NCBI RefSeq assembly: GCF_000392435.1
Contig: NC_021219.1
Span: 120,001-152,000 of the forward strand
Source of the DNA: Candidatus Saccharimonas aalborgensis
GTDB lineage: Bacteria > Patescibacteriota > Saccharimonadia > Saccharimonadales > Saccharimonadaceae
DNA: 32,000 bases
Direction: 5' to 3'
Below the pieces are notes generated by a model. It searched no databases. It was not told where the DNA came from and worked only from the letters and a program-made list of their open reading frames with translations. Positions 4,224-32,000 of this stretch are shown piece after piece. The position numbers and the translations under genes are program-made. The stretch's first letter is position 1. Every line of letters begins with the position of its first letter.

Positions 4224-4955
4224 TTAGTCTCCAAACGTTGTGGCAAATAATACACGGGGCGATAACTCGCTATCTTCGATCCCTCCGGCGAACTTGCCCG
4301 TGACCGTACAGCCACTTCCTCGTCGTTCCGCTATCGGACCTATCACCTGTGTCATGCCTGCTGATCGTGCCGTCATATACATCGGGCTGTTGATTGTTGT
4401 CCGTTGGACGGCTGGAAGCCCGAGTGCTTGAGCACGTTCAAGTCGCAATCGGTAGAAATCATTACTGACTCCCCGTCCACGATAACGAGCGTCTTTTTGA
4501 ATGCCTGTCTCTGACAAATAATACAGACTTCCCGTGATGCCCACGCCAGCGAGAGCACCGACAACACGCTCGCGCATTTGATCAGTACGATATTTTTCAC
4601 GCGCGAGTACCCCAGGTGAAGCATATTTGAATGCCCAGCTAAACCCTGCTATCTGCACATCATCCTTCAGCACGAATAAGCTGGCTCCGGGACGAGTTAG
4701 TTCGCACTGAATATACTCGACAGTCTCTGCTGCCGGATATGCCAATTGTAACGGCTCATTACAGCACGCGCTTGGTTCACCCGGTGAGGTGGTTGCACCA
4801 AAAAACTTACCGTCAACTGGGCATTTTGTCCATTCGTTCCATTCATCCCACTTAAATGCATCGGCATACACCGCAGCGATTTGCAGTAGACTGCTCAAAT
4901 CAATCGCTTGTAAATCACCCTCCACCCTTTCAACTCTCAGTTCAGGATTTTTCAT
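4224..4955 (-). CDS. Putative GNAT-like acyltransferase
   Basis: RYRGRGVSNDFYRLRLERAQALG resembles GNAT motif A (R/QxxGxG). The start is moved to the ATG at 4955, which has an AAGGAG RBS 7 nt upstream; the track start at 4958 is a GTG. Confidence 0.45.
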   Translation of the reverse strand: MKNPELRVERVEGDLQAIDLSSLLQIAAVYADAFKWDEWNEWTKCPVDGKFFGATTSPGEPSACCNEPLQLAYPAAETVEYIQCELTRPGASLFVLKDDVQIAGFSWAFKYASPGVLAREKYRTDQMRERVVGALAGVGITGSLYYLSETGIQKDARYRGRGVSNDFYRLRLERAQALGLPAVQRTTINSPMYMTARSAGMTQVIGPIAERRGSGCTVTGKFAGGIEDSELSPRVLFATTFGD

Positions 4956-6114
4956 CACTATTCTCCTTATTCCATTGTTCTACTATTAATTGATAGAGGT
5001 TTGCCGCAACTTGAAGATCACTAATTGCTGCCGACTCATTCGCTCCATGGCGATTGTCCCCGCCTGCGCCAATCACATATATTGGACTGTCGATTACTTC
5101 AGCGAGTAACTGAACGTCGATATAGCCCCTGTAGCGAGGGTCGTCCGGCTGCCACAAAATACCAGCCTGTGTATAGCACGTCTTCAGAAATTGTTCTGAT
5201 ACCGTATCTCTTGTTTGATTCCAGACACCGAGATCAGCCCCCACTCGAATACTTTTTACCTCGAGACCACGCTCTTGAAGTAGCTGTCTGAGGAGAGTCT
5301 CGACCAGTTGAGCCGTCAGTTTCGTATCGGCAACGCGGAGCTCTATGATACCCTCAGCATAATTTGGAATGACATTTCCGCTGCGCTGAAGTATCTCAGG
5401 ATTATCAACATCCGTTGTCGCGCCGCCCCTAAGGTAAGCAATATTCATCGTCGTTTGTCCCAGTTCCGACGAGGTATACTGAGTCAGCTGCTGCTCAAGT
5501 GATGCCAGGCTCTCCATAAGCTGCGTGATAGCGTTGACACCATTGGCGGGATTTGATGCGTGACCGGATTTGCCGATAACTTCAATATCCATTTTGATGA
5601 GGCCTCTACACCCCATCAACGGTTGCAAATTTCCATCAAGTGATATAACAAGCTCTGGCGGCTGATCAACAAAAAGCTTATCGGCGATCACCTGTTTCAT
5701 ACCGGCAAATCGATACTCTTCGTCGACATAGATGAGCATACCTACGGTCGATCGTGCACTTTTGCTCATTCGTGTCAACGCCACCATGAGTGAGGCAATT
5801 GACCCCTTCATGTCCGCTACGCCCAAACCATAGAGTCTGCCGCTCTCACGAGTTAGTGTGAGCGGCGGTGTTTGCCAGCCGTTTGATATGGGTACTGTGT
5901 CGATATGCCCCACAAATAAGACTATAGGTGTCGGGGCGCCGACGTAAAGGTTTGCTCTACCGTCGGGGAGTGGTTGCCGTGTCAGCTTCATATCTGGTAG
6001 ATTCGTCACAAACCATTGTTCGAGCCACGCGACGACAGCAGTTTCATCACACCCATCAGCGACATAGCTTGCGATCGATACTAATTTCTCGGCCAATGAT
6101 ACGACATCGTTCAT
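4942..6114 (-). CDS. M20-family metallopeptidase/deacylase (ArgE/DapE-like)
   Basis: Metal-ligand motifs GHIDTVP, GVADMKG and GKSGHAS. A GGAGGAAAA RBS lies upstream. Confidence 0.85.
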   Translation of the reverse strand: MNDVVSLAEKLVSIASYVADGCDETAVVAWLEQWFVTNLPDMKLTRQPLPDGRANLYVGAPTPIVLFVGHIDTVPISNGWQTPPLTLTRESGRLYGLGVADMKGSIASLMVALTRMSKSARSTVGMLIYVDEEYRFAGMKQVIADKLFVDQPPELVISLDGNLQPLMGCRGLIKMDIEVIGKSGHASNPANGVNAITQLMESLASLEQQLTQYTSSELGQTTMNIAYLRGGATTDVDNPEILQRSGNVIPNYAEGIIELRVADTKLTAQLVETLLRQLLQERGLEVKSIRVGADLGVWNQTRDTVSEQFLKTCYTQAGILWQPDDPRYRGYIDVQLLAEVIDSPIYVIGAGGDNRHGANESAAISDLQVAANLYQLIVEQWNKENSDEKS

Positions 6115-6261
6115 ACGGTTTTCCTCCGCATAGCCAAGTCAGCCATTGATCCAAATACTCCTATCTGTAATTTCCTTTTCATATCTATCCCTTCGTTTTT
6201 AGTGATGCATAAGCAAAGCGCCAGCTAATGCCGGCGCTTCATACATCTGAATAGATAGAAA

Positions 6262-6579
6262 TTAGCCGACATCAACTGGCGGTGTATGGGCATGATCACC
6301 AGAGAGAATTGCTTGGTAGCCTCCGGTGCCATTGTCCATCCAGTCACGAATACGCGCAACGGTACGTGTCGACAAACGCGTTTCTTTGACGATCTGGTCG
6401 TATGTGTATCCAGCTCGTAGGAGCGCTGCTGCTTTTAGACGGGTGCTAACTTCACGTATTTCTTTTTCTGTCATCACGTCACGCAAAAATGCTTGCATGA
6501 GCGCTATGTCATCAATGCCAGCAAGCACCTGCGAAAATCGCTTCGCTTCTGGTGATTTCCATACGGTGGAGGTATTCAT
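6262..6579 (-). CDS. TrpR-like (YerC/YecD family) DNA-binding protein
   Basis: LRDVMTEKEIREVSTRLKAAALLRAGYTYDQIVKETRLSTRTVARI matches the Trp-repressor-like fold family. The start is set at MNTSTVW (6579). Confidence 0.75.
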   Translation of the reverse strand: MNTSTVWKSPEAKRFSQVLAGIDDIALMQAFLRDVMTEKEIREVSTRLKAAALLRAGYTYDQIVKETRLSTRTVARIRDWMDNGTGGYQAILSGDHAHTPPVDVG

Positions 6580-6586
6580 GAGATAC

Positions 6587-6615
6587 ATTTTACCAAAGTA
6601 AAGTATATTTGTCAA
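6587..6615 (-). promoter_or_regulatory. Sigma70-type promoter TTGACA-17 nt-TAAAAT, 7 nt before the trpR-like ATG (leaderless arrangement)
   Basis: The minus strand reads ttgacaaatatactttactttggtaaaatgtatctcATG. Confidence 0.5.
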
Positions 6616-6644
6616 TACCTCTTTATTTCATTCACTGCCCGCCC

Positions 6645-6673
6645 TTGAGTTAGCTCTCCTGCGGTGATATAAT
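6645..6673 (+). promoter_or_regulatory. Promoter TTGAGT-17 nt-TGaTATAAT aimed at the orphan tRNA-Gln 5' fragment
   Basis: -35 box at 6645-6650 and extended -10 box at 6665-6673. The orphan fragment starts 12 nt downstream. Confidence 0.55.
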
Positions 6674-6684
6674 TCCACTACTAC

Positions 6685-6715
6685 TGGGGATTCGCCAAGT
6701 GGTAAGGCACCAGGT
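6685..6715 (+). pseudogene. Orphan 5' fragment of tRNA-Gln (nt 1-31)
   Basis: 31/31 identical to 6976-7006 (tggggattcgccaagtggtaaggcaccaggt). No matching 3' acceptor strand follows it. Confidence 0.85.
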
Positions 6716-6975
6716 GAGAACTGCCATGGGGGCAGTTCGCAAGGCCGGAAGCCGGATGAGCCTGGGGCTCACCGACTGAGGCGGGTCTGCGAGCAATTTC
6801 TGAAGGAAATTGATGAGCAGACTGGTCCTGGCATTCGGAGTGAAGATTGCCCGTCGGCAATCTGCAAGGCGATCTCACAAATATGCTGTGCTTATTTGAC
6901 TGAGTCGTGAGCCCGCGGGACGTGGGTCGAATCCGATTCGAACTCCCGCACATTTCAGGTATAATATATGCATAC
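6716..6975 (+). other. Structured spacer between the orphan fragment and the intact tRNA-Gln
   Basis: It opens with the hairpin gaactgcc/ggcagttc (6718-6738). It contains a second tRNA-Gln piece (6822-6838, equal to tRNA nt 34-50), the hairpin gattgcc/ggcaatc (6846-6862), the hairpin aaatatgc/gcttattt (6879-6897) and the motif cgcgggacgtg. Confidence 0.5.
6937..6965 (+). promoter_or_regulatory. Promoter TTCGAA-17 nt-TATAAT directly upstream of the intact tRNA-Gln
   Basis: -10 box at 6960-6965. The tRNA starts 11 nt later. Confidence 0.45.
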
Positions 6976-7050
6976 TGGGGATTCGCCAAGTGGTAAGGCA
7001 CCAGGTTCTGGTCCTGGCATTCGGGGGTTCGAATCCCTCATCCCCAGCCA
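6976..7050 (+). tRNA. tRNA-Gln (anticodon CUG) with encoded CCA
   Basis: Manual cloverleaf: acceptor tggggat/atcccca, D arm gcc/ggc, anticodon arm ccagg-ttCTGgt-cctgg, T arm ggggg-ttcgaat-ccctc, discriminator g, then CCA. Confidence 0.92.
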
Positions 7051-8834
7051 AGAGGAATCTTACCTAAATCAACCATGCTATCGTATGGTTTTTTTAGTTC
7101 TATAACAGGGGTAGAGTCGTGTCCTGCTCGTAGGTTCGACACAAACTCATTACATATCGTATCAAGTACCGTGATGTCAGTGGATTGAAGGAACTCTAAC
7201 ACCTTGAATTTAGTGAGTTCGTAAAATTCTTTCTCAGTGGGCAAAGTAACGTTCAATTTAGCCAGTTCCGCCTTGTTATCTGCAACAGCTTCTTCGTAGT
7301 ATTCGATTAGTTGCTTGTGATGTTCAAGTTTGCCATTGTGGTGTTTCTTATACTCTTCCGGATCATCAACCTGGAACGTCTGATACTTGGCATACTGTCG
7401 TTCGTTCTCTTTTAGTTGTTGTGTAGCTTCAGATAGTTTGTTCTTTATTACCGCTTTATCTGATGCAATACGCTGTTCAAGGCCGTTGATATACATGCGG
7501 TATGCTTCTGTACTCTGTTTCGTGAGATGTCGTAAATGCCACTCAATACCTGCTAGTACATATTTGGCACGGATACTTTTCGAGAGTTTGATCCCACGGT
7601 TCTTTTGTTCTTGTGGGTTATGTCGTAAACAAACCCTGTTCCGGCAGTAGTAACTAATCACATACCTGCCTTTTTTCGTTCCCTTAGTTATCGGCTGGTG
7701 CTGGAATTGCATCGGAACACTACAGTAATCGCAGATCACTTTGTTACGAAGCAGACCGTAGTCTAGCTTCTGAGGCTTACTAGACTTGATCGTACTAGTT
7801 TTACCGAAGTCCTTAGATATATCAGCATTCAGGGCAATGAATTCATCAGGAGAAATAAGCGGCCTAAAGTTGTACTGATCCGTTAGTACAGTCAGTAAAT
7901 TGCCGTACTTGTACAGTCCTAAGTAGAATGGATCTGCAAAGAAATCACCAACCATTTTCTTCGTAAATTTAACCAATCTTGGACTATCATTCTCAAACTT
8001 TCGTTCTGTAAATTTATGATCTAGCAGGAACTGGGCGATCTCTGGATTATTCTTACCCTCGTATAATCGCATATCAACAGCCTTGCGAAGTAATTTCCAG
8101 TTATAATCATCCGGCATAAAGTTCCCAGTTGCTTCATCAACGTAGTAGCCTTTCTTGAGTGAACCATTGTATTTACCTTCGGAGATATTCCCGGTATTAC
8201 CACGCTTCACATCAACTGATAATTTGTCAGAGTACTGCTTTGAAGTTGCGAAGAGTATTCCCAGCATCATCTTGCCGTTCGGGTTATTCTCAAAGGCATA
8301 AGTCCGGAAGTGGAGATCCTGTATAGTCTCTTCGTCAACCATCTCAATCACTTCACCAGCTTCTTTCATGTTGCGAGACAAACGATCAGGAGACCAAGAG
8401 ATAAGCCCGTGATATTTTCCAGTTCTAAAGCCTTGCAGCATTTCATTGAATATCGGTCGATTACCGGACTTTTTAGCTGATGCATGTTCTTCGAATATGT
8501 CTTCATCTCGAATCACTGTCTTAACTGTATTGCTAGCAAGTACTAAACATTCCTTACGTTGATCATCTATCGAACGCACTTGCTTGTCTTCACTATCAGT
8601 AGACTTACGCAAATAGATTGCATACCTACGTTTTGCCGTTGGAAGTAACTGCTTGGCATTGCTGGTCGCTGCTTTAAAGTATTCAGCAAGATCATTGATG
8701 CTTCTCTCGCTACTAGTAATGGCAGTTTCTCGATATGAAGAAGTAAGGTCTTGCAGTTTTTGCAGGGCTATTAGATCAGCCTCATTTGCTAACTGTATAT
8801 CTCGTTTTTTCCGGTTAGTAGTACCCTTTGGCAT
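7038..8834 (-). CDS. Large serine recombinase (LSR1)
   Basis: Resolvase-type N-terminal domain (AIYLRKSTDSEDKQ...SIDDQ, SWSPDRLSRN), a recombinase domain, a Cys-rich zinc ribbon (CDYCSVPM...YYCRNRVC) and a coiled coil. The last 13 nt overlap the tRNA-Gln 3' end. Confidence 0.9.
   Translation of the reverse strand: MPKGTTNRKKRDIQLANEADLIALQKLQDLTSSYRETAITSSERSINDLAEYFKAATSNAKQLLPTAKRRYAIYLRKSTDSEDKQVRSIDDQRKECLVLASNTVKTVIRDEDIFEEHASAKKSGNRPIFNEMLQGFRTGKYHGLISWSPDRLSRNMKEAGEVIEMVDEETIQDLHFRTYAFENNPNGKMMLGILFATSKQYSDKLSVDVKRGNTGNISEGKYNGSLKKGYYVDEATGNFMPDDYNWKLLRKAVDMRLYEGKNNPEIAQFLLDHKFTERKFENDSPRLVKFTKKMVGDFFADPFYLGLYKYGNLLTVLTDQYNFRPLISPDEFIALNADISKDFGKTSTIKSSKPQKLDYGLLRNKVICDYCSVPMQFQHQPITKGTKKGRYVISYYCRNRVCLRHNPQEQKNRGIKLSKSIRAKYVLAGIEWHLRHLTKQSTEAYRMYINGLEQRIASDKAVIKNKLSEATQQLKENERQYAKYQTFQVDDPEEYKKHHNGKLEHHKQLIEYYEEAVADNKAELAKLNVTLPTEKEFYELTKFKVLEFLQSTDITVLDTICNEFVSNLRAGHDSTPVIELKKPYDSMVDLGKIPLGWG
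7071..7095 (+). terminator. tRNA-Gln terminator embedded in the LSR1 coding region
   Basis: Stem aaccat (7071-7076) pairs with atggtt (7085-7090), followed by a T-run. Confidence 0.55.
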
Positions 8835-8892
8835 ATATAAAATCCTTACTACTAGTGTACAAAATTTGTGCTGTAATGTAAACTATTGTTAT

Positions 8893-9075
8893 ATGAATAA
8901 TGATTTACCTGAATATCTAACTCTGCCGGAAGTCGTGAACATCCTGAAGGTACATCCGAATACACTCCGGAACTGGGATAAAGACGGAACACTTAAGGCT
9001 ATAAGGATCGGCAAGCGTAATATCAGACGCTGGAAGAAAGCTGATGTGCTGCAATTCATACAAGACAATCAATAA
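8893..9075 (+). CDS. Excisionase-family/MerR-like HTH protein (60 aa), candidate recombination directionality factor
   Basis: LTLPEVVNILKVHPNTLRNWDKDGTLKAIRIGKRNIRRWKKADV is a typical HTH_17 pattern. The gene is divergent from LSR1. Confidence 0.7.
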   Translation: MNNDLPEYLTLPEVVNILKVHPNTLRNWDKDGTLKAIRIGKRNIRRWKKADVLQFIQDNQ

Positions 9076-9229
9076 GCTCTCAGAACAGCCAATACTCACG
9101 CATTATCCGGCTTAAATAAGCATCTTCTTTGCATTTTTATTTCATAGACGGACTTAGAGTCAACTTTTTATTTTAAACGCAAGATTCGCATCAGCGTCAG
9201 GGGCGTTTCTCGTAACTTTGATATATAAT

Positions 9230-9375
9230 CAGAGAGTCTAGATTCAACAATTAGAATAATGAAGTCAACAGACTTTTCGTTTGAACCGTAAATACGGCAA
9301 CTCCTTGCGAAAGCATTTAGGTTCAAACCTGATTGTTGAGTCTAGACAACCCTAGTAAGGGGTTGTCGTTTTTAT
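9230..9375 (+). ncRNA. Candidate structured leader or small RNA ending in an intrinsic terminator
   Basis: An extended -10 box TGaTATATA (9219-9227) precedes a nested hairpin. The outer 16-bp stem pairs 9236-9251 with 9332-9347, and an inner 9-bp stem is gtttgaacc/ggttcaaac. The terminator gacaaccc/gggttgtc plus TTTTT lies at 9345-9373. Confidence 0.35.
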
Positions 9376-9396
9376 TAGCAAGGAGTACAGCATCAT

Positions 9397-9672
9397 ATGA
9401 ATTCGTTAATCGCATACGATCCAGTAATACAAGGTGGAAGCAATTCAACTGTAGACGGTTTAAATGAAGACCGTGAACAGTACTATCAGCAACAAGCAAA
9501 TCAGAGCAACAAGCAAGAAGAGCTCAAACTTGAACAGCAAAAGCTACAGCTACAACAGCAACAGCAGGACACGAACCAACAACTCGTTATTGGTGGTTTA
9601 GTCTTAGGCGGTGTCTTAGTCATTAGTATCGCAATATACCTATTAGCAAAGACATTCAAGAAGAAAAAGTAA
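9397..9672 (+). CDS. Gln-rich tail-anchored small protein (91 aa)
   Basis: AAGGAG RBS, a Q-rich coiled-coil-like middle, a single C-terminal TM helix and a KKKK tail. Confidence 0.5.
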   Translation: MNSLIAYDPVIQGGSNSTVDGLNEDREQYYQQQANQSNKQEELKLEQQKLQLQQQQQDTNQQLVIGGLVLGGVLVISIAIYLLAKTFKKKK

Positions 9673-9829
9673 GCTACTTAGAAGCAGTGTCATATAGTGC
9701 CAATGTATATAATTGAACATAACCAAAAACTGCTAGTTTACGCCGGATTCTCACTGTTAAACACATAAGGGTCGTATCACATGGTTATGGTATGGAGTTA
9801 TAGGAGTAATTCATTGTATAATATACCTC

Positions 9830-11755
9830 ATGACTAATCTGACAAACATCCTCGCAAAATTGACTGCACTCATCGAAAAAAACAAAGCATACATCATAGA
9901 CGGATCCTTAAATCGAAACCTACTTGCAGCTGATGCTCGTAAGTATGACCCTGAACTACTAAACCTTCTGCAGAAGGATGCTGAACTCAAAGAACACTTC
10001 TTCGCTGCTACTGATGGTGGGCTTGTATTCAAGAAAGATGTTTTCTTGCAGTTCATCATGAACAAAGAGTTTTTGCCGGATAGCTACACAAAGTACAAGA
10101 TCAAGATCGGGCTTGGAGCTGACGACGGATCACTTTTATCGGAGAGTGGAGATGTCGTTCTAAATTGGCCATATAAAGATGCGATCCTTGAAGGCGGACA
10201 GGACAAAGAAGATCAAAAACGAAGCGAAGTCTTTTTCAATGAGGTACTAGCCCCAGATCAAATTACACGCCTGTTCGATGATAAAGTTTTCACTAATTGG
10301 AAACGATACGATAAAGACGGCGAACGCGATCTCGATGAACTTAAAGACGATGACAATTTAATCATCAAAGGCAACAACCTTGTCGTGCTTCATAGTCTCA
10401 AAAAGCGATATGCCGGTAGGGTGAAAATGATCTACATAGATCCGCCTTACAATACCGGAAATGATAGTTTCGGGTATAACGACCGCTTTAATCATGCGTC
10501 TTGGCTAACATTTATGCGGAATAGGCTCAATGCAGCAAAAATGCTTCTCGCTAATGATAGTGTGCTAGCTATTCAGATCGACGATGATGAGCATGCGTAC
10601 CTCAAGGTTTTAGCAGACGAAATCCTTGGAAGAGATAACTTTGTAAAATCGATTGCACTCAAGATGTCTACAGCCTCGGGTGTTAAAACTGCTCACCGTG
10701 ACCGCACTATTTTGAAAGAGAAAGAACATATTCTCATATACAAGAGAGGTACTTTAAGGGTTACACCAGAATACATTAAGGCTGATGAGTGGGATAGTGA
10801 ATTTCAATTCGTACTCGAAGGAAAAGAATCTGGTAAGTATAAAGTTATAAAACTTAGTGAATACTTAAAGCAGAATAATATCGATGCAAATGCCAACAGT
10901 GACGAATTCAAAGAGTTCGTGATAAAAAATGCCGATATCATCTGGAGACGAGCATTCATCAGGGGTTCATGGAAGGAAAAATCACTTGCGAATCCTAGTG
11001 AAGTGATAGTCAATAAGGGAGAAAACGGGATCGCATACTACTATGGTGGTCGGCAAATGTACTTCTATAAAGAGAAATTTCATGAATTTTATGATGAGAA
11101 TACAAAAAAGTTTGGCCCGAGCAGTTTACTTGGAGATCTGTGGGCGGATATTAATACTGGGCGTATTTTTAATGAAGGCGGAGTAGAACTAAGAAACGGT
11201 AAAAAAGCAGAACAGATTCTAGCAAGGCTATTGCGAATGTTTACAAAGCCTGGCGATCTGGTGATGGATTATCATTTAGGCTCAGGAACTACCTCAGCCG
11301 TTGCTCATAAGATGGGTCGGCAATACATTGGCATTGAACAGCTCTACTATGGCGATAACGATCCTATGAATCGATTACAGAATGTCATTAACGGTGATCA
11401 GTCAGGCATTAGCAAAGGTGTAAACTGGCAAGGAGGGGGCAGCTTTGTTTATGCGAACATTATGAACAATTCGAACAAGTTCCGAAAGCGAGTTGAGGCT
11501 GCTATGAATGATTCAGATTATTTAGCTCTGTTAAAGGAAGCGACTTCGTCTTCATTCCTGAGTTACCGTGTTGATCCTAAGAAACTCAACGAAGAAGAAT
11601 TCCGGAAACTAAGTTCCGCTGAAAAACGACGGCTCCTACTTGAACTTATCGATAATAATACTCTCTACGTAAATTATGAAGACATCAATGATCCTCTATT
11701 CAAGGTGAGTGAAAAAGATAAAGAGTTTAACAAGAAGCTTTACGAAAAGAATTAA
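9830..11755 (+). CDS. mod: Type III restriction-modification methyltransferase (Mod)
   Basis: Catalytic motif IYIDPPYNTGND followed later by the AdoMet motif DYHLGSGTT (beta-class order). It lies directly upstream of res. Confidence 0.9.
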   Translation: MTNLTNILAKLTALIEKNKAYIIDGSLNRNLLAADARKYDPELLNLLQKDAELKEHFFAATDGGLVFKKDVFLQFIMNKEFLPDSYTKYKIKIGLGADDGSLLSESGDVVLNWPYKDAILEGGQDKEDQKRSEVFFNEVLAPDQITRLFDDKVFTNWKRYDKDGERDLDELKDDDNLIIKGNNLVVLHSLKKRYAGRVKMIYIDPPYNTGNDSFGYNDRFNHASWLTFMRNRLNAAKMLLANDSVLAIQIDDDEHAYLKVLADEILGRDNFVKSIALKMSTASGVKTAHRDRTILKEKEHILIYKRGTLRVTPEYIKADEWDSEFQFVLEGKESGKYKVIKLSEYLKQNNIDANANSDEFKEFVIKNADIIWRRAFIRGSWKEKSLANPSEVIVNKGENGIAYYYGGRQMYFYKEKFHEFYDENTKKFGPSSLLGDLWADINTGRIFNEGGVELRNGKKAEQILARLLRMFTKPGDLVMDYHLGSGTTSAVAHKMGRQYIGIEQLYYGDNDPMNRLQNVINGDQSGISKGVNWQGGGSFVYANIMNNSNKFRKRVEAAMNDSDYLALLKEATSSSFLSYRVDPKKLNEEEFRKLSSAEKRRLLLELIDNNTLYVNYEDINDPLFKVSEKDKEFNKKLYEKN

Positions 11756-11773
11756 CGAGGATTATCGATCATT

Positions 11774-14422
11774 ATGAATAATAATCCTCAAGACAAAATG
11801 CTTAAAAGTGACGAATACGATATCCTGAGTCGATTTCAGGGTGGTTTTACGACAGTACCTGAGCACATATCACTCAATCTTCGCCATGAACTAAGGCCAT
11901 ATCAGACGGAAGCACTCGGACGGTATTTGCATTACTACGATAGCGACAAGAATCGTGATCAAACTCGTGGCATGCAATTGCTTTTCAACATGGCAACCGG
12001 ATCCGGCAAGACGATGATCATGGCGGCACTTCTGCTTGATCTATATAAGCGTGGACAGAACAAGATCGTATTCTTTGTGAATACCACCAACATCATCGAG
12101 AAGACACGAGAGAATTTTCTCGATTCGTCTTCTAGTAAGTACCTCTTCGCTGAAAAGATTGTCATCGATGGTGAAGTTGTAAACGTTCGTGAACTAACTG
12201 ACTTTTCTGATGCACGTGATGATTCGATCAATATCGTCTTCACGACTATCCAAGGGCTACACACTACGCTCAAAGCACCTAGAGAAAACAGTTTAACGTA
12301 TGACGACCTGACTGAACATGATCTCGTACTGTTAAGCGATGAAGCACACCATTTGAACGGTGATACCAAGAAGCTAAACGCTGATGAGAAAAAAGATAAT
12401 ACTTCATGGGAGAGTACGATTAATGCCGTCATGAACGGCAACCCTATGAACCATCTCTTTGAGTTTACGGCAACGATTGATCTTGATGATAAAGAGATCT
12501 TCTACAAGTACAAGAACCGTATCATCTACCGCTACGACCTCCGAGCATTTCGTGAAGACGGCTACAGCAAAGATGTCTGGATCTATGACGTTGCAGCCGA
12601 TCTCATGGATCGTGCTATTCAAGCAATGATCATCTCACAGTACCGTAAGAAAATCGCATTGGCAGCTGGCGTCTGGCTCAAGCCGGTCATTCTCTTTAAG
12701 TCATTCAGGATCGCAGATGCAAATGACTTCTATGATGAATTTGTACTGAAGGTTAAATCAATTTCACATACTGACATTGATAAACAACGTAAGATCGCAA
12801 CCGGGATTCTCGAACGTGCATTTGCGTACTTCGATCAAGAAGGTATCAGTGGATCCGATCTTGCAGATGAACTTCGTTTCGACTTTGCGGAAGAACGACT
12901 AATATCAGTCACTAAAAAAGCTATCACCCCAGAAGATCAACAACGACTCAATTCACTGGAAGATCGGGACAATGAGATCCGTGCAGTATTTGCTGTTGAC
13001 GTGTTGGATGAAGGCTGGGATGTCTTGAACCTCTTCGATATCGTTCGCCTGTATGACACACGTGACAGCAAGAACGGACGACCCGGTAAGACAACGATGC
13101 GAGAAGCACAGTTAATCGGCCGTGGAGCCAGGTATTATCCGTTTGTATTAGATGGAGATGAAGAGAAACGATTCGTTCGGAAGTTTGATGACAATGAGCT
13201 AGAACCACTCCGTGTTATTGAGCAACTGCACTATCATTCAGCAAGTAATCCAAAATACATCCAGGAGATTCGTCAGACACTTCGTGAGACGGGTATTATG
13301 CCGGATATCAACACGGTTAAGCGTGAATTAAATCTGAAAGACTCGTTCAAGGAATCTCACACTTACAAAACGGGTGTCGTCTGGAAGAACGAGCAAGTTG
13401 AAGCCACTGCTATTCCTGAGCAGACGGTATTCCTCGGAGGAGAAGGATACAAACTGCAAGATATTTATGAGATATCTGTTCCTGTAGGCATCTCCCACGA
13501 CCGTCAGATCTTTGTAGATAATAGTGATCTCGAGGCACAAACAAGAAGCGAAGAGCATACCTTCAATGTTACGTTCTCAAGATTCCCTAAGAACCTTGTA
13601 CGTCATGCGGTGGATCGTAACAAAAAACTCCGATATGACATTGTCTCAGAAAAGATTAGTGGTCTCGTTAGTCTTGAAGGCTTCTTGACCGGAGATAAGC
13701 AGCTAGGCGGCGTTAAGATCGCCGTAACAGCTGGAGTTGATCGATACGAAAAACTTACCACAGACGAGCGTCTGTTCATCGTAGAGAAGCTGCTCGCATT
13801 AGTTGCAAATGATATTGCACTGAATGAAAAGAGCTTCGAGGGCACAAAAGAATTTAAGCCTCATCCAATCAAGGAAGTGTTTGATGAACGCATTCTTAGG
13901 AATTACACGATTACAAACAATGATGCGGAGTTCGGCATCTCACAATCTCACCCGGGTAGCTATGATCAACGAGGATCACAATACTATCTCGATCTTTCAA
14001 AAGAAGATTGGCATGTATACGATGACAACTTCGGAACATCTGAAGAAAAGAAACTTGTTCTACTCATGAAGAAACTCATCGAAGATCTCCGTGAAAAATG
14101 GGACGATATCTATCTTGTTCGCAATGAAGGATCATTCAAGATCTACGAATTTGGCAAACCTGGACGTGCTTTCGAACCTGACTATGTGCTGTTTGCAAAT
14201 GACAAACGCAACGCTTCAGTTAGCTGGCAGATATTTATTGAGCCTAAAGGTAACCACTTGATTGAGCACGATGCATGGAAACAAGACTTCTTATTGAAGC
14301 TCAGTAAGGAAGCAAAGATAGTCGGTGAAGACGCAGATACCCGAGTGATCGGAGTACCATTCTTTAATGGTGATATAGAAAAACAATCACACGTCATTGA
14401 AGAAGCTTTAAAAGCACTATAA
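11774..14422 (+). CDS. res: Type III restriction enzyme, Res subunit
   Basis: Helicase motifs NMATGSGKT and LLSDEAHH. The C-terminal PD-(D/E)xK-like nuclease motif is EPDYVLF...IFIEPKG. Confidence 0.9.
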   Translation: MNNNPQDKMLKSDEYDILSRFQGGFTTVPEHISLNLRHELRPYQTEALGRYLHYYDSDKNRDQTRGMQLLFNMATGSGKTMIMAALLLDLYKRGQNKIVFFVNTTNIIEKTRENFLDSSSSKYLFAEKIVIDGEVVNVRELTDFSDARDDSINIVFTTIQGLHTTLKAPRENSLTYDDLTEHDLVLLSDEAHHLNGDTKKLNADEKKDNTSWESTINAVMNGNPMNHLFEFTATIDLDDKEIFYKYKNRIIYRYDLRAFREDGYSKDVWIYDVAADLMDRAIQAMIISQYRKKIALAAGVWLKPVILFKSFRIADANDFYDEFVLKVKSISHTDIDKQRKIATGILERAFAYFDQEGISGSDLADELRFDFAEERLISVTKKAITPEDQQRLNSLEDRDNEIRAVFAVDVLDEGWDVLNLFDIVRLYDTRDSKNGRPGKTTMREAQLIGRGARYYPFVLDGDEEKRFVRKFDDNELEPLRVIEQLHYHSASNPKYIQEIRQTLRETGIMPDINTVKRELNLKDSFKESHTYKTGVVWKNEQVEATAIPEQTVFLGGEGYKLQDIYEISVPVGISHDRQIFVDNSDLEAQTRSEEHTFNVTFSRFPKNLVRHAVDRNKKLRYDIVSEKISGLVSLEGFLTGDKQLGGVKIAVTAGVDRYEKLTTDERLFIVEKLLALVANDIALNEKSFEGTKEFKPHPIKEVFDERILRNYTITNNDAEFGISQSHPGSYDQRGSQYYLDLSKEDWHVYDDNFGTSEEKKLVLLMKKLIEDLREKWDDIYLVRNEGSFKIYEFGKPGRAFEPDYVLFANDKRNASVSWQIFIEPKGNHLIEHDAWKQDFLLKLSKEAKIVGEDADTRVIGVPFFNGDIEKQSHVIEEALKAL

Positions 14423-14621
14423 GCCCGGCGAAGATGCATGGGGTATGGATAATCCAAAATATACTATTTTGTATTTTTAGCCCTGTAACTTCCATACACC
14501 GCTATTGATAAGGCTTATTCCTCAGGTATAGCCTACCGTACCCCACCATGATCCAGATAATCACACTAAAATAAACCTACTCTATATATTTAGGTTCAAC
14601 ATTCTTTTCGTTAGTTATGAA

Positions 14622-14822
14622 TTACTTCTTGATCGGTTGAATATCCGGACTCGGAGCTCTTCGTGCTCGCTTACGTTCAGGGCCGTTTAGCATTATTTCA
14701 CGCTTCTTGTTTTGTTTTTTGAGATCATCAACACTCTTTGCTACCGGAGTAGTAAATACTTTATCATCCCAGTTTGATGTATCTGTAGGCGAAGTTTGAG
14801 GTGGTAGTTTGTTATCACTCAT
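14622..14822 (-). CDS. Hypothetical small basic protein (66 aa)
   Basis: ORF only, with no recognisable motif. The C-terminus is basic. Confidence 0.3.
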   Translation of the reverse strand: MSDNKLPPQTSPTDTSNWDDKVFTTPVAKSVDDLKKQNKKREIMLNGPERKRARRAPSPDIQPIKK

Positions 14823-14987
14823 TAACTACTATTATAACAAAAAGTCTATGCTGGAGGCACGATCAGACCTGACAGGATCCGCCAGCTTCTTATTCAAGGC
14901 CTCAATGCCTTTTTTGATGTTATTAAATTCCAACAGTAGTGCATGCAACTTCATAATTGCAGGTTCGTTCAAAGTACCTTCTCGGCA

Positions 14988-15037
14988 GCCAAGAAAAAAC
15001 TCTGTGAGTATCTATACTTACAGAGTTTTTTCTTGGC
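14988..15037. terminator. Perfect 18-bp hairpin with A/T runs (bidirectional terminator)
   Basis: gccaagaaaaaactctgt pairs with acagagttttttcttggc. Confidence 0.65.
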
Positions 15038-15149
15038 TCATTTTTACGTCTTGCCCGAACTCATTTTGCGACCAAATGTGAGAAATGAGACTTTTCGGCG
15101 GGTCGCCCCCGACCCGAGCCGCCGAAAGTCTCATAAACGGAATTATTTT
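15035..15149 (+). repeat. Arm A of the inverted repeat flanking the TauE gene
   Basis: 15035-15078 and 15122-15149 match the reverse complement of 16021-16093 with a few mismatches. The extra ~43 nt (15079-15121) form their own hairpin, atgagacttttcggcgg/ccgccgaaagtctcat. Confidence 0.8.
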
Positions 15150-15249
15150 CGAAGAACAATGTGCAATTGTTTTATTTTTTCGTACCCTACTTGAGTCTAA
15201 GATTTTGTCATATAATCGTATATATGACCACATCAGATAAGAGGTTGTC

Positions 15250-15987
15250 TTGGATATAACGCTTCTATTAACTTTTTTTGTTTCGTTTATTGCAAGTGTT
15301 CTGAGTGGTATAGCAGGCGGTGGTGTCAGTTTTGTTACAACACCTTTCTGGCTTGTTATTGGTCTAACGCCCGCACAAGGGGGTGCGACTGGGGCATTTA
15401 TGGCTACCGGGATGTCCCTAGGCTCACTGGCAACCTTTAGGAAATCTGGTCATATACCAAAAGATAGAAAACTTTTTTATATTTTAGCTGTAGTGACGCT
15501 TATTGCATCTATACTAGGAGTGTTTGTAGTTCCGAAGATAGACATAAGTGTGTTTCGGACGGTACTAGCCATTATCACACTAGCCGCTTTACCCCTGCTA
15601 TTCGTAAAGCCTAGCACAAAGTACAATTTGAAAAAGTATAAAAAACTTGGATTAGCGTTAGCTGCTGGACTAATGGTAATTGGCTCTATAATCATAAGTG
15701 GAGCGTTTTCAATTCTTTTTACTTTGGTACTTGTAGTGTTCTTTGGCATGTCAGTCTTGCAAACAACTGCCATGAAGCGGCTTCTGTTTTTCCTACAATC
15801 CGTTGTGCTGCTCATTGGGTTTGCCGTACAAGGCTATCTGCTTCTACAATATGCGGCTGTAGCCTTTTTCGGGGGTATACTCGGCGCACACATAGGAACT
15901 AAATATGCAGTAAAAAAGGGTGAAAACTTCGCAAAGTATGCACTTGCAGTAATGGCATTGGTTGGAGCAATAGCGCTGCTGGTATGA
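15250..15987 (+). CDS. TauE/SafE-family anion exporter
   Basis: ~8 TM segments with a GIAGGGVSFVTTPF motif. It has a TTG start, an AAGAGG RBS 5 nt upstream and a TATAAT box upstream. Confidence 0.75.
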   Translation: MDITLLLTFFVSFIASVLSGIAGGGVSFVTTPFWLVIGLTPAQGGATGAFMATGMSLGSLATFRKSGHIPKDRKLFYILAVVTLIASILGVFVVPKIDISVFRTVLAIITLAALPLLFVKPSTKYNLKKYKKLGLALAAGLMVIGSIIISGAFSILFTLVLVVFFGMSVLQTTAMKRLLFFLQSVVLLIGFAVQGYLLLQYAAVAFFGGILGAHIGTKYAVKKGENFAKYALAVMALVGAIALLV

Positions 15988-16020
15988 TCGTTCCGGCCAG
16001 TAGACAGTCATAGTAACAAC

Positions 16021-16093
16021 AAAATAATTCCGTTTATGAGACTTTCGGCATTTGGTCGCAAAATGGGTTCGGGCAAAGGCGTAAAAGTGAGCC
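16021..16093 (-). repeat. Arm B of the inverted repeat flanking the TauE gene
   Basis: Reverse complement of arm A, read directly from the sequence. Confidence 0.8.
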
Positions 16094-16161
16094 ACGCTAA
16101 GAGCTCACCAATAGGTGGGCTTTTTGCGTGGCTCGTTATTAGAATCGAACACCCGAGTGAA

Positions 16162-16290
16162 GCATTCGGGGTGAAGATTGCCTGCGGCAATCTGCAAGGC
16201 GATGTCACCGACGAGCTATGCTCATCGGCCCGACTCGCGAGGTCGGGTTAGTGTAACCGAATCCTCCAACTCGCTCAAGCATAACCAACA
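16162..16290 (+). repeat. Second copy of the module seen at 6831-6950
   Basis: 16162-16208 aligns to 6831-6878. It differs by only two substitutions and the hairpin loop (tgc versus cgtc). The next hairpin (16209-16227) has the same geometry as 6879-6897 but a different sequence. Confidence 0.7.
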
Positions 16291-18796: not shown

Positions 18797-19205
18797 AGAC
18801 GCCGAGGTCGCGTAGGGCAATGCGCGTGACGGCCGCGTTGAGTTGCCCCTGGGAGCGGTAGGCTCCCTGGAACAGTCGGGTGCGGTCGGCGCGGTCACTG
18901 AAGATGCGAAACATCAACTACCTCCGTGGTCGGGGATTTGGACACTACAATAGTAACATAAAAATTGTGAGTAGTCAAGTAACCCTCGATTCAGTCTCCT
19001 CTCCTCCCCCGACAGACAGTTGGCCCTGATGGGCCAAGGCCCGCCAAGGCGAAGGCTAATCAGTTTGCGGCGGGCCGGTTGTCTGGAGTGGGGAAGTGGG
19101 GAGACTCGGGTACGTGGCAATAAGGGTACGCTCATTGACACCAGAGGCCGAACAGTGTACACTTGTGTGAAGTGATAATACTATGTTAAAAGAGTAAGTA
19201 AAGGA
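18797..19205 (-). repeat. Left arm of a perfect 409-bp inverted repeat (a truncated copy of the GC-rich element)
   Basis: It is the reverse complement of 21674-22082. The ORF-track peptides across both arms are identical. This arm ends at about codon 40 of the small ORF. Confidence 0.9.
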
Positions 19206-19217
19206 AGTATTCATTTT

Positions 19218-19631
19218 ATGCTCGCAATTCGTTTGCAACGGTTGGGCCGCAAAGCCTATCCTGTCTACCGTCTCGCTGTTCAGGAAGCACAGCGTCATCC
19301 TTCGAGCGGCCGTGTGGTTGCCTACGTCGGAACCTACAACCCCCACACAAAAGAAGTTAGTATTCAGACAGAAGCTGCTCAGAAGTACCTCGATAACGGT
19401 GCTCAGCCAACACCTCGAGTCGTGAAGCTTCTCAAAGATGCCGGTGTGACATTGCCAAAGTGGGTCAAAGAATTTGATGGTTCAAAGGCAAAATCAGTCA
19501 AAAAAGCTGATAAGCTCCGCAAAAACCAGCCAAAAGAGGAAGTGACTGAAGTAGAGCAAGAAACTCCTGAAGTTCCTGCCGACGAAGTTGTGGCTGACAC
19601 TACTGTTAGCGAAGAACCAACTGCCGAATAA
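19218..19631 (+). CDS. rpsP: 30S ribosomal protein S16 with a Lys/Glu-rich C-terminal extension
   Basis: MLAIRLQRLGRKAYPVYRLAVQEAQRHPSSGRVVAYVGTYNP is canonical S16. Confidence 0.92.
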   Translation: MLAIRLQRLGRKAYPVYRLAVQEAQRHPSSGRVVAYVGTYNPHTKEVSIQTEAAQKYLDNGAQPTPRVVKLLKDAGVTLPKWVKEFDGSKAKSVKKADKLRKNQPKEEVTEVEQETPEVPADEVVADTTVSEEPTAE

Positions 19632-19655
19632 GTTACACTAATGCAAACGAACACA

Positions 19656-19686
19656 CTACCTCTCTCGCTCAGAGAGGTAGTTTTGT
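19656..19686 (+). terminator. Intrinsic terminator after rpsP
   Basis: Stem ctacctctc/gagaggtag followed by TTTTGTATT. Confidence 0.7.
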
Positions 19687-19761
19687 ATTATGCCTTCAGC
19701 AGCGTGGTACAATGAAATATAGCGATATTAACAGTGAGACCAGAACAGGAGGCTAGTGGGC

Positions 19762-20166: not shown

Positions 20167-20264
20167 TCATAAACAGTTCATGCGAGAATCTTGAACTTGA
20201 ACGACAAAAGCTCTTGCGAGCAAACCACATGTGTTACTGACCCAAGAAGAGATAAAGACCTGTC

Positions 20265-20588: not shown

Positions 20589-20655
20589 ATTGTTTATACT
20601 ATACCACGAAAGTAGCCCGCCGAGCGAGCGAATCCTGAGGCCATGTTGGCTCGGA

Positions 20656-20814: not shown

Positions 20815-20943
20815 ACCAGCTCCTTACGGGTTGGGACTGTCAGGAATTGACAGTAATATCATTATAGCATAAGAACAATAAAAAAGCAATACATCGGATG
20901 CAACCACTAGCATAATTTGTCAATAGGTGCTATGATACTTTTT

Positions 20944-30448: not shown

Positions 30449-30468
30449 CACTTAGTACAGTAAAATAC

Positions 30469-30492
30469 GCGGGTTTAGCTCAGTTGTTAGAG
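30469..30492 (+). pseudogene. Orphan 5' fragment of tRNA-Gly (nt 1-24)
   Basis: 24/24 identical to 30647-30670 (gcgggtttagctcagttgttagag). Confidence 0.85.
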
Positions 30493-30646
30493 TGAGAATC
30501 TCCGGCAGAGATTCGGAAACGGACTTTCCGATGAAAACTACGTTTTCAATAGTGAAATCCGGGGGTCGCGGGACGTGACCTGCCTTGCAAGGCCAAGGAA
30601 GCTAACACAGGAGCGCACCTCGTACGCACATTGTTACCAACCATAC
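30493..30646 (+). other. Structured spacer between the orphan fragment and the intact tRNA-Gly
   Basis: It opens with the hairpin gaatctc/gagattc (30496-30514), then cggaaa/tttccg and gaaaac/gttttc hairpins and the motif cgcgggacgtg. It also holds an anticodon-arm-like piece, ccttgc-aagg-ccaaggaag. Confidence 0.5.
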
Positions 30647-32000
30647 GCGGGTTTAGCTCAGTTGTTAGAGCGCTTCCTTGCCAAGGAAGAGGTCGAGAGT
30701 TAGAGTCTCTTAACCCGCACCAAATATTTGAATTATGAGCCGAAAGGCTCTTTTTCTTTGCCTCAACGATGGTTCTAAAGGGGTCGTTTAGTATATAAGA
30801 CAGCTTTTTGTCCTTTAATTCAATGTTTGAAAGTACGTATTCCAATAACTTCTGTCGTAGCCCCTCATCGCTCTCTTTGAACAACTGGTCAGCCCGTTGA
30901 GCCAAGTCTAACAGGTAAGAGGCGGTTACTTGGAACTGTTTGTTATCATTTGTTAGCAACTTTAGGCGGTCATTCAGTTCCTGCTGTTTCTTTTCTAGCT
31001 CAGTTGCAATTTCATCGTGGAATGTCTGTGTAATACGACCCTCAAGTAAGTCATAGTAAACCTTACGCATTTTGTCCTTGAGCTTGTCGTACTCAGCACG
31101 GGTCTGCTCAATGTTTTGCGTAAAGTAGGTTTGCTGGTCGTTATGACGGTTACGCAGCTCGGCAATGACTTTATCTAACCAATTTTCTGGCACGTCTATA
31201 AACCCTATATCTGCCGCTACTTCATCAATTACGAGGCTCACGGCTGTATTAGGATTATCGCACTTGGAGTTAGCACATCGCAAATACACTGTGTTGCGAG
31301 CCTTGAATGGCGATACTGCACGTCCGCACTTGCCGCACTTCACTATCTTTTTGAGTGTAAAGTCTTTGCTATCGTACTTAGTCTTTTCGTGTTTACGCTC
31401 ATCACGGACACGCTGCACTTGGTTGAACAAGGCACGGCTGATTAGCGGCTTGTACTTGTGTGGGTACTCTCTGCCAGCGTGTACCATAACGCCATAGTAG
31501 AATGGGTTGCTCAAGATGCGTTCAAGAAACTGCTTACTTGGTGCTTTACTGCCAGCGATATTGCTACGAAAACCCATCTCACGAAGTTCTTTTGCAATGA
31601 CAGCATACGACATACCTCTTGCTCGCAGTTCATACGCTTTTACAATGTAGTGTGCCTTTGCATCATCAACTTCAATATCTTTGAGTGGTTTCTGTGGCGT
31701 ACCGCCCTTCAGCACGTTTAGATAGCCAATAGGAGCACGATGTACCCAAATGCCCTCACTCAGCATCTGCTCAAAGCGGCGTTTTACATTATCACGGATA
31801 CTATCTGAGTAGTATTTTGCCAGTGCCATACCAATACCTAGCCGAAACCAATCAGCAGCCGATGAGTTTTTATCAATGTACAGGCTATCGTTAGGGAAGT
31901 GCAGCTCAATCTTGCCTTGTTTGACCAACTGCTGCAATGCTTTTACTTCTTCTTGGCTACTATCACGAGTAAGGCGGTCTATCTTATCAAAGACTACGTA
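30546..32000 (-). CDS. Large serine recombinase (LSR2); the N-terminus lies beyond the window end
   Basis: The frame is open to the window edge (YVVFDKIDRLTRDSSQEEV..., the resolvase DRLxR motif). It has a zinc ribbon CGKCGRAV...RCANSKCDN and a coiled coil. The ORF reads antisense through tRNA-Gly. Confidence 0.85.
   Translation of the reverse strand, partial: YVVFDKIDRLTRDSSQEEVKALQQLVKQGKIELHFPNDSLYIDKNSSAADWFRLGIGMALAKYYSDSIRDNVKRRFEQMLSEGIWVHRAPIGYLNVLKGGTPQKPLKDIEVDDAKAHYIVKAYELRARGMSYAVIAKELREMGFRSNIAGSKAPSKQFLERILSNPFYYGVMVHAGREYPHKYKPLISRALFNQVQRVRDERKHEKTKYDSKDFTLKKIVKCGKCGRAVSPFKARNTVYLRCANSKCDNPNTAVSLVIDEVAADIGFIDVPENWLDKVIAELRNRHNDQQTYFTQNIEQTRAEYDKLKDKMRKVYYDLLEGRITQTFHDEIATELEKKQQELNDRLKLLTNDNKQFQVTASYLLDLAQRADQLFKESDEGLRQKLLEYVLSNIELKDKKLSYILNDPFRTIVEAKKKSLSAHNSNIWCGLRDSNSRPLPWQGSALTTELNPRMVGNNVRTRCAPVLASLALQGRSRPATPGFHY
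30647..30722 (+). tRNA. tRNA-Gly (anticodon GCC) with encoded CCA and an unusual elbow
   Basis: Manual cloverleaf: acceptor gcgggtt/aacccgc, D arm gctc-agttgtta-gagc, anticodon arm cttcc-ttGCCaa-ggaag, T arm gagag-ttagagt-ctctt. Confidence 0.85.
30737..30755 (+). terminator. tRNA-Gly terminator embedded in the LSR2 reading frame
   Basis: gagcc-gaaa-ggctc followed by TTTTT. Confidence 0.6.

Follow-up and report, generated by a model that had tools for sequence, protein, structure and literature searches.

Why should a bacterial genome keep the 5′ part of a tRNA gene, equipped with its own promoter, a short distance upstream of an intact copy of the same gene? The locus raising this question lies in a 32,000-nt stretch of Candidatus Saccharimonas aalborgensis DNA (contig NC_021219.1, positions 120,001 to 152,000; hereafter the window), in which a partial tRNA-Gln copy and a spacer precede an intact tRNA-Gln gene, itself adjoined by the gene of a large serine recombinase. 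An initial annotation had offered three explanations: that an island brought a replacement tRNA and disrupted the resident one, that these are remnants of older insertions, or that the partial copy and the spacer form a functional RNA. We conclude that positions 6643–7050 constitute a composite cassette whose two inserts, named X and Y, are probably non-autonomous mobile elements that spread among the tRNA genes of Saccharibacteria and fold as the tRNA-sense strand. The cassette runs from the native promoter (P1) through a truncated tRNA copy carrying X in its anticodon loop and Y in its T loop, an inverted copy of the T arm and a second promoter (P2) to the intact gene.

The truncated tRNA-Gln copy and its inserts

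The components of the locus are as follows:

6645..6673, + strand: promoter P1 (TTGAGT, 17-nt spacer, TG-extended TATAAT), upstream of the truncated tRNA copy
6682..6715, + strand: direct repeat 1, TAC plus tRNA-Gln nt 1–31 (exact 34-nt repeat)
6716..6821 (106 nt), + strand: element X, in the anticodon loop, replacing U33 (covariance model R1, family covariation)
6822..6838, + strand: tRNA-Gln positions 33–49 (exact 17-nt repeat of 7008–7024)
6841..6927, + strand: element Y, in the T loop after T54 (sister type of X)
6928..6934, + strand: T-loop remainder and first nucleotides of the 3′ T-stem strand, CGAATCC (tRNA sequence resumes directly 3′ of Y)
6935..6949, + strand: inverted T-arm copy GATTCGAACTCCCGC (inverted repeat I3, 93% complementary to 7022–7035)
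6960..6965, + strand: −10 box TATAAT of P2, before the intact tRNA (read from the sequence)
6973..7050, + strand: direct repeat 2 and the intact tRNA-Gln(CUG), the tRNA being 6976–7050

The identity of 6685–6715 to nt 1–31 of the intact tRNA-Gln, on which the initial annotation was built, is exact and extends 3 nt further upstream (TAC), giving a 34-nt direct repeat (6682–6715 = 6973–7006) whose first copy holds the 5′ acceptor strand, the D arm, the 5′ strand of the anticodon stem and the first U of the loop. A second exact tRNA piece had been placed at 6822–6838, and both its exactness and its coordinates hold, although it corresponds to tRNA positions 33–49 and not 34–50. It comprises the anticodon CUG, the 3′ strand of the anticodon stem, the variable loop and the beginning of the T stem, and this 17-mer has just two sites in the 32 kb with up to 2 mismatches allowed, where shuffled sequences lead one to expect 0. 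The promoter said to precede the truncated copy is indeed a strong one, matching the consensus at 10 of 12 positions with a TG upstream of the −10 box, and −10 boxes like that of P1 also precede other class-b cassettes. Of the internal promoter claimed for the spacer, the TATAAT is present at 6960–6965, and no good −35 box was found for it. A motif at P2, TTCA(A)GGTATAATATA, is also kept at a related locus, L083, described below.

The intact tRNA-Gln(CUG) at 6976–7050 is called by both ARAGORN and Rfam (59 bits). Neither program calls a tRNA in the upstream copy, the only calls in the window being 6976–7050 and 30647–30722, and the upstream copy was rejected as a functional tRNA because no complete cloverleaf was recognised there. 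The spacer is structured, as had been claimed: compared with shuffled sequences, the folding z-score is −3.9 for 6685–6975 and −4.6 for 6685–7050. Furthermore, the inverted T-arm copy at 6935–6949 could pair back on the flanks of Y.

The element family and its insertion sites

X and Y belong to one family of elements, 65–115 nt long, each made of three consecutive hairpins (H1, H2 and H3) closed by a host helix. For X in the window, H1 occupies 6715–6725/6731–6741, H2 6744–6782 and H3 6786–6821, and the closing helix is the anticodon stem (6710–6714 with 6827–6831). The consensus of X is about 101 nt long, with H1 consisting of UGAGA, a hairpin and GCA, H2 of GCCGGAAGCCGGAU, a short hairpin and ACCGACUGAGGC, including tandem G-A pairs and a C-A mismatch, and H3 of GUCGCG...CGUGAC, in which one G-U pair is invariant and one A stays unpaired. 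H2 is nearly invariant across the family, even at paired positions, a degree of conservation that suggests a bound protein or a catalytic core. RNAalifold analysis of the X alignment gave 34 pairs, 22 of them with compensatory changes, and 95.9% of the cells were paired; none of 500 shuffles reached any of five measures, and the covariation score of 0.394 fell to at most 0.08 once the pairing partners were slid. The hallmark of the X type is taken to be H1-H2-H3 with the invariant AAGGCCGGAAG...CUGAGGCGGG, placed behind GGT in a loop of a truncated tRNA copy that neighbours the intact gene. Window positions 6715–6821 have these properties: they match the full model, are flanked by tRNA-Gln nt 31 on the left and nt 33 on the right, and lie 154 nt ahead of the intact gene.

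A covariance model (R1) built from 37 X copies, the window copy among them, scored 79.6 bits on 6715–6821 (E 2.7e-15, for a copy that is in the seed). Copies were collected by scanning metagenomes with a pattern made from the two invariant blocks of X. At least 120 stretches matched, those with a name being Saccharibacteria, and proteins on three long contigs were annotated as Candidatus Saccharibacteria or 'Candidatus ...'. R1 gave 134 matches in 707 kb of these pattern-selected loci, whereas in 397 kb of unrelated Saccharibacteria loci it matched at L083 and L007 only. Relatives are present in two other Saccharibacteria species. At L083 a clear homologue of the 106-nt X follows a 5′ fragment of tRNA-Glu (nt 1–17) and precedes the conserved TATAAT region and an intact tRNA-Glu; at another locus, L009, a related element lies behind a 16-nt tRNA-like 5′ end.

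Y, which sits between T54 and C56, shares with X the 5′ module (UGAR-H1-GCAAGG) and the 3′ module (CGGGG-GUCGCG-loop-CGUGAC), while its middle hairpin covaries freely. The Y type is defined as UGAR-H1-GCAAGG, a variable H2′ and (C)GGGG-H3 (GUCGCG...CGUGAC) with the same insertion rule as X. Its hairpins in the window are H1 at 6841–6851/6856–6866, H2′ at about 6869–6908 and H3 at 6912–6926, and R1 matches 6841–6926 over the full model length with 26.9 bits (E 3e-4). An alignment of the window copies 6841–6927, 16172–16257 and 30494–30579, all three of which fit the definition of the Y type, with 11 copies from other loci gave 31 pairs, 25 of them with compensatory changes. A 67-nt mini version at L125 lacks H2 entirely.

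The positions of these elements follow a strict rule. Among 112 X copies whose ends could be defined, 95 lie no more than 450 nt from an intact tRNA of the same strand, and 22 anticodons are represented. Two orientation classes could be told apart. The 53 copies of the downstream type are arranged as tRNA, terminator, about 35 nt, X and a 3′ tRNA fragment reaching from the T loop to the CCA, the T loop always being the insertion site. The 42 copies of the upstream type begin with a promoter and a 5′ tRNA fragment, after which come X, a short run of tRNA nucleotides, another promoter and the tRNA; here the element occupies the D, the anticodon or the T loop. Where both flanks could be matched, exactly one tRNA nucleotide was replaced in 64 of 68 cases (GGT^T). 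That is, the left flank ends at nt p, the T after GG, and the right flank restarts at p+2; for the window X, p = 31 and U33 is replaced. The junction consensus on the X side is GG|T...GTGAC|C/A, and the host junction reads ...RGG-T^[element]^C/A..., again with one nucleotide replaced. The elements always lie in a truncated tRNA copy, which nearly always has the intact counterpart at its side; in the window cassette the truncated copy consists of tRNA-Gln nt 1–31, 33–49 and 55–61.

Inverted T-arm copies lie beside the element in many cassettes, the one at 6935–6949 included. Their pairing with the element flanks is only weakly enriched (13.6 of 16 pairs versus 12.4 in shuffles), frequent but not universal. 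A few X copies have no detectable adjacent tRNA (L138, L176 and L204, with about 100 nt around X, and L117 and L197). Either long complementary sequences flank them or a GGGGCGGACCGGGCGACAGGACC motif is close by; Rfam recognises nothing there, and they are possibly inserted in another stable RNA gene.

The window itself holds two more cassettes of the same kind, at 16141–16277 and 30465–30646:

16141..16277, + strand: downstream cassette, natively about 90 nt after tRNA-Gln and now separated from it by the island
16141–16157, + strand: inverted T-arm copy, part of the downstream cassette
16162–16171, + strand: sense GCATTCGGGG, part of the downstream cassette
16172–16257, + strand: element Y′ (R1 19.8 bits, E 0.01, full model length)
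16258–16277, + strand: decayed 3′ tRNA fragment, part of the downstream cassette
30465..30722, + strand: tRNA-Gly cassette, an independent second example
30494–30579, + strand: Y-type element of 86 nt, upstream of tRNA-Gly
30647–30722, + strand: intact tRNA-Gly(GCC) (tRNA calls)

The segment 16162–16241 is a 79%-identical copy of 6831–6911 whose hairpins show compensatory changes; natively it lies about 70 nt past the tRNA terminator, and insertion of the recombinase island parted this cassette from its tRNA. In the tRNA-Gly cassette an exact 28-nt repeat (30465–30492 = 30643–30670, ATAC plus tRNA-Gly nt 1–24) is followed by the Y-type element, a decayed anticodon-arm piece and the intact gene. 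The window contains three occurrences of the module formed by a hairpin and GCAAGG.

Mobility is suggested by copies nested in one another, by tandem arrays and by a pair of strains of which one is filled and the other empty. Y is nested inside H3 of X at three loci (L102, L111 and L119), and at L111 three tandem upstream cassettes and one downstream cassette surround a single tRNA-Gln. The filled/empty pair consists of L127 and L201, whose flanks are 99% identical; the extra sequence in L127 is made up of X, tRNA-Ile nt 22–28, 13 nt of filler and a repetition of positions −14 to +20. Moreover, one and the same H1 subtype is found beside different tRNAs. The first approximately 60 nt downstream of this tRNA-Ile also differ, with a partial copy of tRNA-Ile nt 28–53 and unclassified sequence in L127 and a terminator followed by a downstream X cassette in L201. 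The two loci hence differ on both sides of the tRNA, which suggests that tRNA flanks turn over fast.

No family of Rfam 15 matches X or Y. The covariance search of the spacer that the initial annotation had proposed yielded only the tRNA at the gathering score; when the region and 18 related loci were searched at the gathering threshold and at E<=10, nothing but tRNAs and one partial 16S rRNA reached the gathering score, and the sub-threshold matches looked like chance. BLAST of the spacer against phages and plasmids gave no match, and the two-block pattern found nothing in IMG/VR viral contigs, where a first pattern with 19 specified bases had given chance matches within coding sequence only. 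No description of the element was found in the literature, literal sequence strings included, with coverage that was incomplete and leaves novelty unproven. The family is widespread in Saccharibacteria and apparently undescribed. Among known RNAs, tmRNA, SRP RNA, RNase P RNA, T-box, Y-RNA-like RNA and CRISPR homing-spacer were rejected, as no model matches and the gene neighbours are unfitting. OMEGA, bridge-RNA and retron systems were likewise dismissed, as the neighbouring ORFs encode an M20 peptidase, a YerC/TrpR-like protein and the recombinase, with no TnpB, IscB, IS110 transposase or reverse transcriptase among them.

The neighbouring recombinase island

The gene adjoining the intact tRNA encodes, as annotated, a large serine recombinase, in which the Resolvase and Recombinase domains are both recognised. 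It belongs to an island outside the cassette:

7051..16089, no strand assigned: large-serine-recombinase island (empty sites, lower GC, Pfam matches)

Besides the recombinase, the island genes encode an excisionase-like helix-turn-helix (HTH) protein, a type III restriction-modification system and TauE, and the GC content is about 0.40 against 0.49 in the surroundings. An exact-protein look-up of the neighbouring M20 peptidase led to six Candidatus Saccharimonas aalborgensis contigs that match 6200–7050 at 99.6–100% identity and diverge exactly past the 3′ end of the tRNA. The block 6643–7050 is found with 0–11 substitutions per approximately 410 nt in nine contigs (L001–L007, L118 and L183). 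In three of these (L002, L007, which is the species representative of Candidatus Saccharimonas aalborgensis and 96.4% identical, and L183) window position 7050 abuts 16090 with no recombinase between them; L118, whose contig stops about 100 nt past the junction, was not counted as an empty site. The comparison with related genomes suggested by the initial annotation has thus recovered the empty site, and it delimits the island as 7051–16089.

The same comparison shows that the spacer arrangement is unrelated to the island. The whole orphan–spacer–tRNA block is intact in the three island-free genomes, so the proposal of a replacement tRNA imported by the island at the expense of the resident one is refuted; an arrangement that persists where no recombinase is nearby is just what the initial annotation had named as refuting it. 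Nor is the position of the intact tRNA beside the recombinase the anomaly it had been taken for, since tRNA-integrating elements usually leave the intact tRNA beside the recombinase. The suggestion of older insertions comes nearer the mark in so far as insertions are concerned, although the inserts are non-coding structured elements of about 100 nt and not decayed recombinase islands. Furthermore, L183 is without the genes of 4224–6642, yet it retains the block from 6643, the −35 box of P1, onward.

It is scarcely credible, then, that the tRNA parts are attL and attR remnants of this island or of earlier integrase islands, with the intact tRNA supplied by the island. The 3′ end of tRNA-Gln does host two different large serine recombinases, that of the window and that of L003 (2–1303; Resolvase, Recombinase and Zn-ribbon domains), which marks it as a hotspot for serine-recombinase islands, and inserts bounded by duplicated tRNA segments are the classical topology of such integrations. 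However, L002, L007 and L183 have the entire arrangement without the island, whose left boundary is exactly the CCA end of the tRNA (7050/7051) and not the repeat edge at 6715/6716; the sole stretch shared by the two island junctions is the 5-nt AGCCA. Cassettes of the same type are present, without any recombinase in the vicinity, at the tRNA-Gly 23 kb distant and at over 100 further tRNAs, and searches of phage, plasmid and viral collections did not recover X. A footprint of the present island was accordingly rejected, as the empty sites retain the block and the boundary does not coincide with the repeat.

The recombinase ORF (7038–8834, minus strand) crosses the left junction into the tRNA, its final four codons and stop being antisense to the tRNA 3′ end. 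Just past the tRNA the island supplies a hairpin and T-run (7071–7090) in place of the displaced native terminator of tRNA-Gln, which is 16101–16126. The island cargo (8653–9075, 9830–14422 and 15250–15987, all on the plus strand) comprises a small HTH_17/MerR-like protein that is encoded divergently to the recombinase and may be an excision factor, type III Mod and Res, and a TauE-family exporter.

Several observations concern the contigs and genes around the block. L001 (1–5064) is 99.96% identical to the window as far as the tRNA end, past which it carries rpsP/KH/trmD-like genes, inverted and only about 75% identical to window 19201–21669; this junction could reflect another island, a recombination event, or a metagenome assembly in which unrelated pieces were fused at the tRNA into a chimera. 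L004 and L005 stop exactly at the tRNA, as expected if repeats break assemblies. The sequence missing from L183 (L183 4546–4611 versus window 4224–6642) contains a 244-aa ORF, the M20 peptidase and yerC. The yerC/TrpR-like gene (6577–6615, minus strand) has a leaderless appearance, with TTGACA-17-TAAAAT ending at 6587 and the ATG at 6579, and is transcribed divergently from P1 about 50 nt away. It adjoins tRNA-Gln in this species only, and 79 other Saccharibacteria yerC loci were uninformative, save L083 and L009, where related cassettes are present by chance.

Probable mobile elements, possible host RNAs and known systems

If X and Y are, as we think probable, non-autonomous elements that are currently or formerly mobile, each insertion would leave a direct repeat of a tRNA segment, a topology that would correspond to the single-crossover (Campbell-type) insertion of a small DNA made of the element and a tRNA segment. 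The partial duplication would spare a single-copy, essential tRNA, and recombination between the repeats would make the insertion reversible. In upstream cassettes such as that of the window, transcription from P1 would yield a long structured leader made of the pseudo-tRNA and its inserts X and Y, which RNase P would cleave from the tRNA. A more specific version, in which the elements are autonomous at the RNA level, is rather unlikely: here the folded RNA of about 100 nt, alone or with a host protein bound to H2, would direct insertion after GGU and template the partial duplication, or else the tRNA fragment would guide an RNA-guided enzyme. Were it true, these elements would be a bacterial counterpart of minimal group III-like introns or of ribozyme-borne retroelements.

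A number of points weigh against mobile elements. No transposase, integrase or reverse transcriptase is associated with X or Y, and neither terminal inverted repeats nor an ordinary target-site duplication was found at them. The difference between L127 and L201 could be a loss through recombination between repeats and not a gain, and in S. aalborgensis the cassette is fixed in all nine contigs, so that no current mobility is shown here. The window X is moreover a diverged member of its type (80 bits, where 105–119 are typical), and Y and Y′ are only 79% identical, whereas the tRNA pieces are identical to the gene at 51 of 51 nt. Such identity next to diverged elements implies gene conversion or selection on the fragments, and the conservation of the fragments hints at a host function over pure selfishness.

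The identity of the folding strand also bears on function. In L183 the orphan anticodon-stem strand is CUGGG and not CCAGG, and it pairs with CCUGG through two wobbles that would be A-C mismatches on the opposite strand; likewise, the G-U pair of H3 is invariant, and G-U exceeds A-C among single changes in the X alignment. This bias, though, favours the tRNA-sense strand only mildly, and the conserved C-A mismatch in H2 would be a G-U pair on the other strand, two further points that count against the proposed form of the elements. With moderate confidence we therefore take the tRNA-sense strand to be the one that folds, be it RNA or, possibly, single-stranded DNA. The functional RNA envisaged by the initial annotation has been made plausible, if indirectly, as the block starts at a promoter, X and Y show strong compensatory covariation, and L183 keeps the closing helix by means of its two wobbles.

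That X and Y are domesticated domains of a host-encoded leader or trailer RNA, co-transcribed with tRNAs and inherited vertically, is nevertheless unlikely, if well short of negligible. They would then act as a processing, stability or regulatory module or as a protein platform, with the tRNA fragments as scaffold and as handles for RNase P and RNase Z. Such a role would account for the retention of P1 at the start of the conserved block (6643), for the near-invariance of H2 even where it is paired and for the closing stem preserved through wobble changes in L183. It would also fit the complete identity of the orphan tRNA pieces to the gene in a cassette that looks old, and the zero differences over 6200–7050 with L006, a strain 2.1% divergent overall. 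It is harder to reconcile with an element that lies beside 22 different tRNAs at varied loop positions and in lineage-specific combinations, that occurs in nested copies, tandem arrays and a filled/empty pair, that in downstream-type copies sits behind the terminator, and whose flanking tRNA fragments decay freely in many copies. A leader RNA and mobility are in any case compatible.

Introns, whether of group I, group II/III-like or protein-spliced, would make the interrupted tRNA copy functional, and the elements do sit in tRNA loops closed by tRNA stems, with bacterial group I introns known in anticodon loops. Their ends read GUGAG...AC when the last host G is included, or (G)UGAG...GAC, and the unpaired A of H3, 8 nt before the 3′ end (about 8 nt as read from the alignment), together with an AGC-starting hairpin 3 nt upstream, recalls group II domains V/VI, as the nesting recalls Euglena twintrons; the resemblance of the ends to group II/III introns is a loose one. 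Still, in-silico excision with 9 × 13 = 117 boundary offsets gave a tRNA in only 1 of 108 copies, which speaks against X being an intron. One tRNA nucleotide is missing in nearly all matchable copies (64/68), interrupted copies lack the 3′ or 5′ part of the tRNA, an intact copy is almost always adjacent, and the Rfam group I and group II models have no match at E<=10 in 6500–7200 and 8 other loci. Introns are consequently very improbable. Distinctly unlikely, too, though compatible with mobile elements, is that X is a new small self-cleaving or self-ligating ribozyme in the manner of twister, hatchet or pistol. X is multi-copy and combines a multi-helix junction and invariant purine-rich joining strands (AAGGCCGGAAG and CUGAGGCGGG) with covarying peripheral helices, and it loosely resembles the twister core; this likeness and those to the hairpin ribozyme and to group II domain V we treat as presumptive leads. 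Yet no ribozyme family of Rfam 15 matches (E<=5–10), no cleavage site can be inferred, and the Y type and the 67-nt mini version behave in the same way on insertion without the invariant H2.

Saccharibacteria and other ultrasmall bacteria have streamlined genomes with single-copy tRNA genes, and Saccharibacteria nonetheless carry arrays of a conserved, structured and uncatalogued element around many of these genes. If the elements are mobile, selfish DNA or RNA would have found a new route to exploit the conserved tRNA-loop GGTTC, the host being spared by partial gene duplication; if they are functional RNAs, a new and abundant class of RNA would be at hand, whose invariant core perhaps binds a protein or is catalytic. 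In either case, the cassettes account for contig breaks at tRNAs in Saccharibacteria assemblies, and orphan tRNA fragments near tRNAs should not automatically be read as integrase scars.

How do the cassettes compare with known systems? Like the attL/attR footprints of tRNA islands, they hold an insert bounded by a partial direct repeat of the tRNA with the intact gene on one side, and their insertion points are symmetric tRNA loops, as for tRNA-integrating islands, which reportedly use anticodon, T-loop or 3′-end sublocations. Unlike islands, the insert is non-coding, about 150–300 nt long and without a recombinase, one conserved element is found at 22 different tRNAs in both 5′-type and 3′-type duplications, and X and Y show RNA-type covariation and are present regardless of the recombinase island.

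The likeness to miniature inverted-repeat transposable elements (MITEs), REP/BIME and Rickettsia palindromic elements (RPEs), the last of which insert into protein and RNA genes, lies in short, non-coding, multi-copy, hairpin-forming sequences that are polymorphic between close strains and tolerated only where the host function survives. Unlike in MITEs, the ends of X (TGAGA.../...GTGAC) are not inverted and the flanks are a tRNA copy of 28–65 nt instead of a 2–10-bp duplication, so that of the MITE properties terminal inverted repeats and a short target-site duplication are lacking. The elements are set apart from such repeats, moreover, by three different hairpins with an invariant core, by the strict GGT^T target in tRNA loops and by a host-gene duplicate, always partial, that accompanies every insertion. 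The mobile non-canonical tRNA introns of Thermoproteales archaea and the group III introns and twintrons of Euglena share with the elements, as do group I introns, the spread among tRNA genes, the location in tRNA loops and the nesting, and the size of X (about 100 nt) resembles that of group III introns, but removal of X leaves no tRNA, the host copy is truncated and no Rfam intron model matches. Finally, twister, twister-sister, hatchet, pistol, hammerhead and HDV-like ribozymes are similar in size, in their multi-helix junction with invariant joining nucleotides and in their patchy multi-copy spread, though X matches none of their covariance models. Hence, while sharing traits with each of them, the cassette fails a defining test of tRNA islands, of MITE/RPE repeats and of tRNA introns alike.

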